64,000 nucleotides of DNA from Escherichia coli (GTDB lineage Bacteria > Pseudomonadota > Gammaproteobacteria > Enterobacterales > Enterobacteriaceae): NCBI RefSeq assembly GCF_050320075.1, contig NZ_CP190018.1. The stretch is one strand, 5' to 3'. A program made the position numbers and the translations under genes. How positions within the stretch are numbered: position 1 is the first letter of the stretch; every line of letters starts with the position of its first letter. The notes beneath the pieces were generated by a model, which saw nothing but the letters and a program-made list of their open reading frames with translations, searched no databases and was not told the DNA's origin. Positions 1-4,834 of this stretch are shown one piece after another.

Positions 1-68
1 GGTGTTCCTGGATACCCATTAAGAACATATTTTTTCGAATAGTTAATTTATTTTCTCAGGAAGAGATT

Positions 69-638
69 TTATTTTTCTTCACTACGAAGCAGTTCATGCT
101 GTACTTTTGTTAAACATTCGTAAGACTCATCTTTGTTCGGGAGATGTGCTGTCATTCGAGCATAAGTTGGCTTCTCATCTTTAAAATATTTAACCATGAT
201 TGAATTATCAAGGACTGCCAACAACTGAGCTGGATCACTGCTCTTTTTTTGATAGATACCCGCTCTTATATAACTTCTAAACCGATCGCCGAGAAACGCC
301 GTTTTTTCTGCTGTATTTAGCAACTCCTGCAACGTTCCTTTGGTTGCATGATTTTCATTAAGGCGTAGTGATCCGACGCGAATTAAGAGTCTCGCCCCGC
401 TTGGTGTGAATTTGTTATTTTTACATATACCAAGTTCTGTTTGCCAATAATACTCACCTATGTCCTCATTCTGATACCATCTCCACATGGTTTTATTATT
501 TAAGACAGGAAACGCGGAAAAAATAGTACCCTTAGTGAAAATGGTAAAGCAATCTTGATCTTTAGCTTGTGTTTCGCAATTAGCTATAACACCAAAACTA
601 ACGAATATCATCAGCAAAAAGAACAAAGCTCTTTTCAT
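69..638 (-). CDS. Putative Rhs immunity protein: small secreted protein immediately downstream of the Rhs C-terminal tip, 4-bp overlap with rhs stop
   Basis: ORF track 189 aa; N-terminal hydrophobic signal-like segment [21 protein letters not shown]; AT-rich like the Rhs tip; position typical of RhsI genes. No homolog recognised. Confidence 0.5.
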
Positions 639-3600
639 TTTCTTATTCCTCTCGATGTTCTCTGTTTCATTTTAGCTAAAATTTCACCCAAATCATCTAT
701 CCCTGCTGTTGCTGGCCCATCGGGTTTATTAATGTCTGGGAATAAATAGGGTTCTGCACAAGTATATCCTGGTGGTAATTGAGTTGTTGGCCAAGTTGTC
801 TGTGGCAGGTAATCACTTGCTGTCTTTGTCTCCATCCCTGGATACTGGGGATCATCCTGCGGCGTACAAGTCAGATTGGGTTTTACCCACTTCCTGCAAT
901 ACAGTGTGTAATCGTAAGGACTTAATGCTCTGAAGAATGTTTTGAAAACATTAGGCGCACTACTGGCCTGGTCAATAGGATATGGCAGTCTTAATTGTTT
1001 CGCTATGTCTGGCAACTTACTTGGATCGGGCGTAGGCGGTTTGTTGGGTCTCGCTCCATATCCGCCATTATTTAAGTGTCCATATTTAGATGCCAGTCCC
1101 ATTGAATCTATATACTGAACCGGATTTAACGGATACTGATAAAAATTCCATCCCCCCTTCAGTCCAATCGGATCCTGAGTGATATACCGCCCCTGCAGCG
1201 GGTCATAATAGCGGTGGCGGTTGTAATACAGGCCGGACTCCTCATCATACTGCTGACCCGGCAGGCGGATGAGCTGCTGCAGCTGGTGCGGGTTCTCTTC
1301 ATTCAGCAGGTTGCCCCATTCATCGTATTCTGCGCACCATTCTGTTGCCCCTTCCGTGCTGACAAGCGCCAGCGGCAGGCCGCGATGGTCGCAGTGGTAC
1401 AGGTGGATTTTTCGCGCCGGCGTGTACACCGGGTCCATCTGGTTTTGTATCTGCTCCACCGTCAGGCCGCACGATGCCAGCCAGCGGCGGCTTTCCTCAC
1501 TCACCCGGTCAGCCAGGATTTCACTTTCCAGCCGGTCGAGCATCTGCACCAGCACCGGCGGGAACACCACACTGCCACCGTCTTCGCCGCCGGACTGCTG
1601 AAGGGCATCCGCCAGGCTGCGGCGCTGCGTTTTCGCCAGCTCACCGGTGGCGGTTTCAACTCTGATGAGTGGCGTGAAGCTCCCCGGCTGATAAACCGTC
1701 TGGATGCGGGTTCTGTCGTTCTGTATCGTGGTCAGCCGGTCGCCGTCCCAGCCGTACCAGGTCACTTCCGGTTTCCGTGACAGCGACATCCAGCCCGTCA
1801 GGTCCCGTTCACGCCGCCATACCCGTTTTGCCACCCTGCGGCCCAGCGGGTCGTAAAGATAGCGACTTTCGACCAGCGGCTCTGCATATTGTGTCCGCGT
1901 GTAGTGCACCAGCCGGTGCCGGCTGTCGTAATGATACCGGTGAGTCCGCTCATCATCCGTGCGGATAACCCCTTCCGGGATGAGGTCGGTTTTCTCTGTC
2001 AGCCTGCCGTGACGGTCATACCGGTAAAGATAGTGCGCGTCACGGGCGATACGGTTATCCGGCCACATGCTGAGGGTGCTGTCCGGGTGCAGCTCCGGGT
2101 CGGGCAGGCGGTTGCCTGCCGGGTCCGTGGCATACGGGATGCGGATATCCAGGTTCGCTGCCGTGGTGTGGACGCCGGTCAGCCTGCCGGTGTCGCTGTA
2201 GCTGTAACTCCGGGTCTGGCGCGGGCTGCTGATGCGGATGAGTTCGCCGTTGTCGTTCCAGGTGTAATCGCGGTCATACTGCAGGCTGTTCAGGTGCTGG
2301 CTCTGTAACTGCCCGGCAGAGGTGTAAGCGGTGGTGAGTTCATAACGGCCGAAGCTGCGCAGCGTTTCCCGGTGCAGGCGGTCGCGGGTGTACTCCACCA
2401 GCGGTGTGTCGCCGAGTTTCATGCCTGACAGCCAGCCGCTGCCGTAGGTCAGCCATTCCACGGCGGGCAGGCTGTCCGGTATACAGCGGTTCGCCAGTCC
2501 CTGCGCGTTGTAAGCGTGTCTGGTTTCATGCTGCCAGAGCAGTGCTTCCGTCTGCGGGTGATGCACCGTCTGGCGCTCACCGGTCAGGCGGCCTTTCTCA
2601 TCATACCCGTAATGCACCGTCACCCGGTGGCCTTCGCTGAGATGGCTGATGCCTGTCAGCCAGCCGCGTTCGTCATACTGCCACTGCTCTGCCGGTTCAC
2701 CATTCACCGTTCGCTGTGTGATGCGGTCTGCTTCGTCATAGTGCCAGTGGGTGACCAGCCCCTCATCCTCGCTGCGGATAAGTTTGCCGGTCAGGTCGTG
2801 GTGATAACGCTGTGTGCGGCCGTCAAAGCCGGTTTCCTGTATCAGCCGGTCAAGTACATCGTAACGGAAGGTGGTGTGGCTGCCGTTTTCACTGGTCAGG
2901 CGGATGACCCGCCCGGCAGCATCGTATTCCATACTGCGCGTCAGACCGCCCTGCGTGGTACGAACGGGCTTTCCCCACGCATCGTACTGTGTCCCGTTTC
3001 TGCTGCCGTCCGGGGCAATGACGGCGGTCAGGTCACCGGCGGCGTTGTATTCATACCGCGTTTCATGGCCCTGCGTGTCTTTCACCGCAATTAACTGTCC
3101 ACGGCTGTCGTATGCGCGGTACTGACTCAGCCCTTCCTCGCGGTGCACCGCCGTCATCTGACCAAAACGGTCATGGTCATAACGGGTTACATAACCGGAA
3201 CAGTCAGTGACGGTCAGCAACTGACCGTAACGGCTCCATGTCATGGTTTTCCGGCTGCCGGTGGCATCCTCCGTTGCGCAGGGTAAGTCACTGTGTGGAT
3301 TATCATAACGGTAGCGGGTGATATCGCCGTTGTGTGCGGTTTCCTGAATCAGACGGCCGGATTCATCATATTCCCGGCGCAATTCCAGCCCGTCAGGCCC
3401 GGTGGCTGACGTTAACTGGCTGTGGTGGTTATAGTAAAATGCCGATGCCCTGCCATCCGGTGTGGTGATGCGCGTGATGAGTCCCGTCACCACATCCGGG
3501 CTGTACTCAGTCGTCCGGCCTGCGGCATCCGTCTGTGCCTTAAGCCTGCCCACCGCGTCAAACTGACTCTGCGTGACGCTGCCGTCCGCGTGTTCCTTTT

Positions 3601-4834
3601 TCACCACCCGCTTCAGCCCGCCTTCGCCCTGCGTGTGCAGCACTTCACGGCGGTCCAGACTGTCGGTGATGGTGATGCGGTCTTTCTCATACTGATACGT
3701 GTAGCTTAAGCCTGCCGGGTTTAGCTGCTCTGTCACCCGCCCGTCGCTGTCGTAACGGTAACGGATTTCTGGCCGGCCCGCGCGGTGGTGCGCCACCATC
3801 CGGCCCCGGTATTTATCATCGTAAGTAAAGCTGCGCACCTGTTTGCCACTGCGGTCATACACCGCCGCCAGTTCGCCGCGTGGCGTCCAGCCATAGCGCA
3901 CCAGCGGCGCGGCAGGTAAATTCTCCGGGTATTCCGGGTCGTGTGTCAGCCACACGGCAGACAGACGGATACCGTTGTCCCGGCCATATTCCGTGTAGTC
4001 CGGCAGGGTATCAGGAAAAGCGGACGGTTCCGTCCCGCCGGAAGAGGCCTGCTGCCGGGCCTCTTCTGCCCGCTGCGCCTGCGTGGTCAGTACCAGCCGG
4101 AAGTGACGCCCGGCACCATCCGTCACGCCGGTGATTTCGCCGCTGAATTCACCGCCAGCCTCACGGTGAAACGTCTGTGTGCGCCCGAAGCGGTCCACCA
4201 GCCCGGTCAGTACCCGGTACGGCGGCAGCGGCGCGGGCAGCACCTCATCCGCTTCCGGCACCCGCTCACACCAGCCGAGCAGCCACCACGGCCCCTGCGG
4301 ACTGTTTGTCGCCAGATAACGATGCGGACTTAAGCGGAGTTCTTCCGGCAGCGCCTGCCAGAGTGCGGTCAGCCGGTGACCTTCATCCAGTTTCAGGACA
4401 CCGCCACGCACCAGCCAGAGTGACTCGCTGCGGCTGTAACCGTCCTCACCGGGAAACAGGTGCTCAAAATACAGGCTCCTGCCGCCGTTATCACTGAGTA
4501 TCAGTGTGTTATCGCGCAGCTGTAGGCGGATATCCGCAGGCATTTTCCAGCCGGGGCCGAGGCTCCCCACCGGCGCGGGCGTTTTTGTCCGGTAACTGCT
4601 GTAGGTGCGGGAGAGGATGAACGGCAGCGGGCCGGGCAGGGCAAGGTCGGTTTCGCCGGGAAGGACCTTCGCGCCGAGCAGCGGATTGACCGGATGGCCG
4701 GACGTCACCCCGCCGGGGCACACCGAACAGGCCACGCCGGTGGGGGCACCAATACGTACCCCGGCAGAACCCTGAACAATGCTACCGCCATACTGCGTCA
4801 TGTCGCCCTGACGCGCCGCCGGTTTTCCGCTCAT
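635..4834 (-). CDS. rhsB: Rhs-family polymorphic toxin (PAAR-like N-terminus, YD-repeat core, variable C-terminal tip)
   Basis: 1399-aa ORF; N-terminal [26 protein letters not shown]-like motif; long GC-rich YD-repeat core; DPIGL core-end motif about 179 aa from C-terminus followed by AT-rich tip; locus next to nikR as for rhsB in K-12. Confidence 0.9.

Follow-up and report, generated by a model that had tools for sequence, protein, structure and literature searches.

A ybfO/ybfC-type toxin-immunity module on a full-length Rhs protein at the Escherichia coli rhsB locus, with a probable site of action in the periplasm

Introduction

Where in a target cell does an Rhs toxin act when its C-terminal tip resembles no known toxin and the gene behind it seems to encode an exported protein? 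The question is raised by positions 69..4834 (minus strand) of a 64,000-nucleotide stretch of Escherichia coli DNA (contig NZ_CP190018.1 of RefSeq assembly GCF_050320075.1; the whole stretch is called the window here), in which a gene for an Rhs protein is followed by a short overlapping open reading frame (ORF). An earlier note on this DNA had suggested that the ORF encodes a secreted immunity protein, which would imply a toxin acting in the periplasm. Our analysis leads to a similar answer: the region is probably an Rhs toxin-immunity cassette at the rhsB locus, in which the tip would act in the periplasm and a partner of the YbfC type would protect against it.

The genes themselves are already catalogued, as ybfO/ybfC in K-12 and as RhsC/RhsCI in O157, and the cassette type is well known. 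Rhs tips without an assigned function are common, so that an unrecognised tip alone is unsurprising. The interest of this module is that two thirds of complete E. coli genomes carry it, K-12 included, and that its toxin is one of a small group of Rhs C-termini for which Pfam, NCBIfam and the Protein Data Bank (PDB) contain no relative. In addition, the exported partner with its disulfide signature points to an envelope target, a less explored side of Rhs biology. A function for the module would cover two long-standing K-12 y-genes, ybfO and ybfC.

Results

The window protein is a canonical Rhs with a distinct C-terminal tip

The features of the cassette, numbered by window position, are as follows.

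635..4834, minus strand: Rhs gene, 1399 aa (from the ORF list), with its stop codon at 635-637.
4694..4834, minus strand: N-terminal 47 aa of the Rhs protein, with the PAAR motif KPAARQGD, directly before the Tse5-like shell start P48-VNPLLGAK.
1160..1174, minus strand: DPIGL (aa 1221-1225), the motif that closes the Rhs core, read from the sequence itself; presumed C-terminal autoproteolysis site.
638..1159, minus strand: C-terminal tip, aa 1226-1399, 174 aa.
1094..1159, minus strand: conserved 22-aa segment after DPIGL (KGGWNF...YIDSMGL), still within the RHS_core model (aa 1-1247).
989..1093, minus strand: Pro-rich linker, aa 1248-1282 (ASKYGH...KQLR), kept only in close homologues, the remote ones carrying unrelated linkers; predicted local distance difference test score (pLDDT) below 50 in AlphaFold2 (AF2).
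638..988, minus strand: conserved toxin core, aa 1283-1399, with C1313, C1323, C1359 and W1316 conserved in alignment A3 and an amphipathic helix with a basic RGxRK tail at its end.
69..638, minus strand: putative immunity gene of the YbfC family, 189 aa (from the ORF list), overlapping the Rhs stop codon by 4 nt (ATGA).
582..638, minus strand: signal-peptide-like segment, aa 1-19 of the putative immunity protein; its division into n-, h- and c-regions recurs in alignments A2, A4 and A5.

The NCBIfam equivalog model RHS_core (NF041261) matched aa 1-1247 of the protein with 2633.6 bits, compared to a cut-off of 2000 bits. YD repeats were detected by TIGR01643 (E = 9e-40), and the TIGR03696 Rhs_assc_core match spans aa 1170-1247, with DPIGL inside it. 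Base composition also changes along the cassette, with a GC content of 62% in the core, 43% in the tip and 37.5% in the downstream ORF. With its full RHS core, YD repeats, DPIGL-type core end and composition switch, the window protein belongs by sequence to the polymorphic toxins of the Rhs / YD-repeat type. Tc toxins, Tse5, RhsA and Tre23 are cleaved autoproteolytically, and we infer a release of the tip at DPIGL in this Rhs as well.

At the N-terminus, the Pfam family DUF6531 matched clearly (E = 3e-18), the PAAR proteins 4jiv and 9rce matched weakly (E = 0.52 and 0.02, respectively), and aa 48-145 aligned to the Tse5 shell chain 8cp6_B from the first residue of that chain onwards (E = 5e-16). 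Because the deposited chain starts at the residue aligned to P48, N-terminal self-cleavage is plausible for this Rhs too, and the alignment suggests a cut before P48 that would free the 47-aa fragment carrying the PAAR motif. Residues 44-55 (window 4670-4700) read ...TSGH/PVNPLLGAK.

The tip matches no known toxin domain and belongs to a small Rhs-borne family

The earlier note had described an AT-rich tip of about 170 aa after DPIGL that is rich in Pro and Cys. The switch, the length, the YTCAEP motif and the Pro content (13.8% of tip residues) were borne out, while richness in Cys was overstated: the tip contains three Cys in all, every one of them conserved in the family. The tip is basic (isoelectric point 9.0) and lacks hydrophobic segments: the highest mean Kyte-Doolittle (KD) value of any of its 19-mers is 0.14, and its grand average of hydropathy (GRAVY) is -0.76.

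The note's reading of the tip, as one without a recognisable nuclease or deaminase fold, also stood. Sequence searches of Pfam (E<=10), NCBIfam and the PDB matched nothing beyond the Rhs core end, and the same held for a search of Pfam and the PDB with a profile of A3, an alignment of 15 tip sequences reaching down to 27-46% identity; no nuclease, deaminase or ADP-ribosyltransferase (ART) domain was found in the tip in Pfam at E<=10. One PDB match, to MAPK1 (E = 1.7), was set aside as chance, and a colicin M-like DxYD(x5)HR motif was rejected as the residues after YD-x5 vary (R, K, D, Q or H). The motifs of the tip are absent among the nine PT toxins in one supplementary file of 10.1101/2021.10.19.465003.

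When a profile of the tip was run against the complete set of 1.84 billion representative proteins, it gave 28 matches, about 27 of them credible. We rejected P0098, a 2084-aa repeat protein (E = 2e-4) that was matched spuriously and fourfold through its repeated '...NNYTLYVRN...C' segments (residues ~1765-1809). Every retrieved relative that reaches upstream of the tip runs into an Rhs core, and the remaining, shorter ones contain the tip only. In members with 27-46% identity, conservation extends to SP(Y)D(Y), the three Cys, the Trp, several Pro and Gly residues and the Asp in GxDD, together with the C-terminal amphipathic helix and its basic RGxRK tail. The conserved tip core holds no His and A3 has no conserved His column, which excludes a Cys-His dyad. 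Close relatives of the tip and the ORF were found by word-indexed searches in Escherichia, Salmonella, Citrobacter, Kluyvera, Phytobacter and Pseudocitrobacter. The Salmonella homologue P0009 looks damaged, with Tyr in place of the second conserved Cys, and P0015 (Phytobacter) and P0016 (from a metagenome) have a different, shortened tip C-terminus. The source name of P0015, 'putative deoxyribonuclease RhsC', is inherited from K-12 RhsC, whose tip differs.

The tip is paired with an exported YbfC-type partner down to low sequence identity

Downstream of the tip, the overlapping ORF with a signal-like hydrophobic N-terminus was confirmed as the earlier note had read it. Between the Rhs stop codon and the ybfC-type ORF there is no further small ORF. 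We examined five distinct remote loci (L004, L007, L008, L009 and L011), and in all five the next gene after the toxin encodes a YbfC homologue, with 22-32% identity to the window ORF (E = 7e-30 to 7e-9). The start and stop codons of these remote pairs mostly overlap, and each partner has a signal-like N-terminus. The pair is kept in the same gene order from 100% to about 22-35% identity and, because the order is conserved down to that level, the pairing of toxin and ORF is not due to chance. At L004 the module is adjoined by VgrG, DUF2169 and PAAR-like genes, and L007 holds a second, toxin-less YbfC copy, as in immunity arrays. Upstream of its orphan YbfO-like module, L007 (1-3698) also encodes a full-length Rhs with a Gly/Ala-rich, glycine-zipper-like hydrophobic tip, followed by a 188-aa protein with hydrophobic segments; this other pair looks like a pore-former with a membrane immunity protein.

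The signal-peptide layout was judged by inspection and with a simple script. In the window ORF it consists of K/R at positions 2-3, an 11-residue hydrophobic core with a KD of 2.95 and small residues at -3/-1, and signal peptidase I is likely to cleave after A19. The same layout is kept in 21 close and 6 remote YbfC homologues, with a basic n-region and an h-region KD of 2.2-2.95. Two cysteines, C30 and C175, are invariant in the YbfC family, and two others, C21 and C72, are both present in Enterobacteriaceae, L004 and L008 and both absent from L007 (two copies), L009 and L011. The invariance of C30/C175 and the joint gain or loss of C21/C72 give a two-disulfide pattern, suggesting a protein that folds in the periplasm.

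The structure predictions proposed in the earlier note differed in outcome, the model of the tip being unusable (pLDDT 42) and that of the 189-aa ORF showing a β-sandwich (pLDDT 75, predicted template modelling score 0.74). Apart from its signal peptide, the YbfC-type protein is thus predicted to be a soluble β-sandwich. The ORF had no sequence match in Pfam, NCBIfam or the PDB, and a profile search with the remote YbfC members retrieved neither an annotated relative nor a toxin from any known class.

The module lies at rhsB in the window and next to rhsC in K-12

The first 1300 bases of the window are 100% identical to many E. coli chromosomes. The Rhs region is 100% identical to that of E. 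coli CFSAN061763, where the Rhs gene adjoins nikR and lies between it and a run of orphan Rhs/immunity remnants that ends at yhhJ. This is the rhsB locus, which in K-12 holds rhsB-yhhH. The earlier note had described the K-12 tip and its downstream gene as different, and they are: window Rhs and K-12 RhsB are 95% identical in a stretch that ends at aa 1260 (the identity to K-12 RhsC ends at aa 1249), the tips beyond it are unrelated, and BLASTP gave no match between the ORF and K-12 YhhH (PF15631), whose record carries no signal peptide annotation. The identity to the K-12 rhsB tip that would have spoken against the note was therefore not found, and in K-12 the module sits at another rhs locus.

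The novelty relative to K-12 that the note implied did not hold, since the same pair is present there as the orphan ybfO/ybfC at rhsC. The last 477 aa of the window Rhs are 98.3% identical to K-12 YbfO, with 3 differences in the tip; the ORF is 92.6% identical to K-12 YbfC over 189 aa, with 14 differences; and the DNA of the two modules is 96% identical over 1275 nt. K-12 ybfO (b0703), which carries a pseudogene annotation, is an orphan piece of an Rhs gene that lacks the N-terminal part; it lies downstream of rhsC and is followed by ybfC (b0704). Judging from these alignments, the 3' end of the window gene pair is a ybfO/ybfC-type module and not the K-12 rhsB/yhhH module.

Of 5426 complete E. 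coli genomes, 3613 (67%) contain tip and ORF together (69..1085), with a median of 1 copy and a maximum of 2. The window allele (at least 99% identity) accounts for 284 genomes and the K-12 type (95-99%) for 3323. In RefSeq, the K-12-type allele is named 'protein YbfC' and the 93%-identical window allele 'hypothetical protein'. For most E. coli copies of the toxin the annotation gives a partial 'RHS repeat-associated core domain' fragment. O157:H7 carries the K-12-type allele on an RhsC of the full 1399 aa, with ybfA and kdp beside it. The K-12 pair and the O157:H7 pair RhsC/YbfC (RhsCI, z0853) are the same module as that of the window, with the same 4-nt overlap; the window copy is a distinct allele and is fused to an intact Rhs at rhsB, by nikR, instead of rhsC. 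An in-silico study of strain EDL933 treats the pair as RhsC/RhsCI (z0853), and its EDL933 rhsC primer matches window 1031-1050 (PMC7216683).

Orphan genes for an NTF2-fold immunity protein and a DUF6258 protein follow ybfC both at O157:H7 rhsC and at rhsB of the window lineage (L001 13650-14825 and L013 5674-6730; in that lineage they lie just beyond window position 1, outside the window). The same genes after both modules point to an exchange of the whole 3' block between rhs loci.

Compared to K-12, the ratio of non-synonymous to synonymous substitution rates (dN/dS) was 0.10 for the core end, 0.08 for the tip and 0.26 for the ORF, indicating that both genes are under purifying selection. 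At non-synonymous sites the ORF has diverged about 4 times faster than the tip (dN 0.032 vs 0.007; 14 vs 3 aa changes; 69-1159 against L003 8130-9220).

Discussion

The conserved export signal of the partner and its covarying Cys pairs argue for neutralisation in the periplasm as the best inference, and hence for a toxin that acts there; the conserved Cys of the toxin, its hydrophilic character and the lack of a detectable cytoplasmic-type toxin domain agree with this. In the mechanism that we propose, the YD-repeat shell would enclose the C-terminal domain, and the protein would cleave itself after DPIGL and, like Tse5, probably before P48 as well. Delivery would be by a type VI secretion system (T6SS), to judge from the Rhs class and from the genes at L004. 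The released C-terminal fragment, hydrophilic, Pro-rich and of ~19 kDa, would then act in the periplasm of the target cell, where its three conserved Cys would be expected to become oxidised, giving one disulfide and a free thiol or another thiol-dependent arrangement; that the odd number of conserved Cys leaves a free, possibly functional, thiol is speculation. YbfC, as a Sec-exported, disulfide-bonded periplasmic β-sandwich, would bind the toxin and thereby protect the producer.

Known envelope-acting systems resemble this pair in different respects. The closest solved relative of the start of the window Rhs shell is Tse5 of Pseudomonas aeruginosa (RhsP1, PDB 8cp6), which is described as an Rhs effector of a T6SS with an envelope-acting toxin (PMC9637101). 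Tse5-CT is a hydrophobic pore-former that has a membrane immunity protein. Unlike Tse5-CT, the window tip has no hydrophobic segment, and its partner is predicted to be a soluble exported β-sandwich. The Tae/Tai amidases, Tge/Tgi muramidases and Tlde1/Tldi1 share with the window pair a signal peptide on the immunity protein and a hydrophilic toxin of ~15-20 kDa, and Tae5/Tai5 has been presented as a periplasm-acting T6SS effector with its immunity protein (10.1101/2020.02.18.954545). In contrast to Tae, Tge and Tlde1, which are free cargo effectors, the window toxin is the tip of an Rhs protein, without a Pfam match to those families and without a conserved His.

With regard to the target, we rank first a small enzyme or stoichiometric binder directed at an envelope component that is soluble or exposed at the surface (for example peptidoglycan or its lipid-linked precursors, or a protein of the periplasm or outer membrane), and second a perturbation of the membrane by the amphipathic basic C-terminal helix. 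A classical pore-former, a phospholipase or a Cys-His amidase is unlikely. A pore-former does not agree with the lack of hydrophobic segments, and toxins of the pore-forming or glycine-zipper type (Tse5-CT, VasX, Ssp6) were rejected on the KD and GRAVY values of the tip and the predicted solubility of its partner. The lack of a conserved His argues against Cys-His amidases and YkuD-type enzymes, so that Tae1-4, NlpC/P60, CHAP and Tlde1 (YkuD), none of which matched in Pfam at E<=10, were rejected as well. The small size of the tip argues against Tle-type lipases.

The same scheme could operate with YbfC as a lipoprotein, anchored in the membrane by Cys21 and not soluble in the periplasm. Cys21 directly follows the hydrophobic segment, and several homologues have LASC, IAAC, ISAC or IGAC at this point, which resemble a lipobox. 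However, the E. coli alleles have N or D at -1 (IANC, IADC), a disallowed residue that makes a poor lipobox, this Cys is missing from four remote homologues, whose sites are of the plain AxA type, and Cys21 is lost together with Cys72, suggesting that the two form a disulfide; we regard anchoring of the E. coli protein as unlikely. A different location altogether would follow if the tip acted in the cytoplasm, as most characterised Rhs tips do (PMC10433429), nucleases and ARTs among them, with YbfC either an unrelated passenger or a periplasmic interceptor that meets the toxin before it crosses the inner membrane. The basic tip would suit such a target, and the name of P0015 would too, but for having been inherited from a protein with another tip. 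This we consider unlikely given that no nuclease, deaminase or ART domain appeared even at E<=10, that the pairing with YbfC persists to about 22-35% identity with the signal peptide always kept, that the conserved Cys of both partners suit an oxidising compartment, and that no second small ORF separates the Rhs stop from ybfC.

It is quite improbable that the module is a decaying, functionless relic, a displaced tip that chanced on an intact rhsB. The truncated K-12 pseudogene, the many copies annotated as fragments and the damaged homologues (P0009 with one Cys lost, P0015 and P0016 with altered C-termini) would fit decay, but both the window and O157:H7 carry the tip in frame, at the end of a complete Rhs of 1399 aa, dN/dS is low for tip and immunity gene alike, and the family is conserved across distant lineages. 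Least probable is an anti-eukaryotic effector, a VipE-like inhibitor of vesicle traffic, as proposed in silico for EDL933 RhsC on the basis of a threading template modelling score (TM-score) of 0.574 for the rhsC product (PMC7216683). Such a score is near the noise level for threading, the poor AF2 model of the tip cannot back any fold match, and a conserved, overlapping partner gene with an exported product is the signature of an antibacterial toxin-immunity pair.

Several points weigh against a periplasm-acting toxin with a soluble YbfC-type protector. The literature yielded no functional study of ybfO/ybfC and no experiment on them, and the AF2 model of the tip, built from an 11-sequence alignment, provides no fold evidence for any activity. 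An odd number of Cys misfits a purely structural disulfide role, and in part of the YbfC family the lipobox-like sequences make membrane anchoring possible. As for delivery, the Pfam PAAR_motif match to the Rhs N-terminus is weak (E = 0.18), and no vgrG, hcp or eag gene lies next to the window Rhs, which has nikR upstream. To our knowledge, K-12, which keeps the orphan module, has no T6SS.

A bolder proposal, which we hold only tentatively and think doubtful, is that YbfO-CT founds a new class, that of small periplasmic toxins dependent on thiols or disulfides, with a new fold, activation by the Dsb system of the target cell and a new envelope target. If so, the target would lie outside the known amidase, muramidase, lipase and pore-forming classes, the module would play a major part in determining which E. 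coli strains are compatible (67% carry the module or at least ybfC), and the retention of the orphan ybfC by K-12 would be explained. Jackson 2009 (PMC2935791) makes no mention of the ybf genes or of a signal peptide.

Neighbouring sequence

A scan for promoters and terminators in 1..1400 gave nothing above the shuffled expectation. In the remainder of the window (5037-64000), the first ~20 kb are ordinary E. coli chromosome by ORF layout and the annotated record, and nothing unusual stands in the ORF list from there to 64000; the genes of these first ~20 kb are nikR-nikA, acpT, yhhT, yhhS, dcrB, yhhQ, tusA and zntA.

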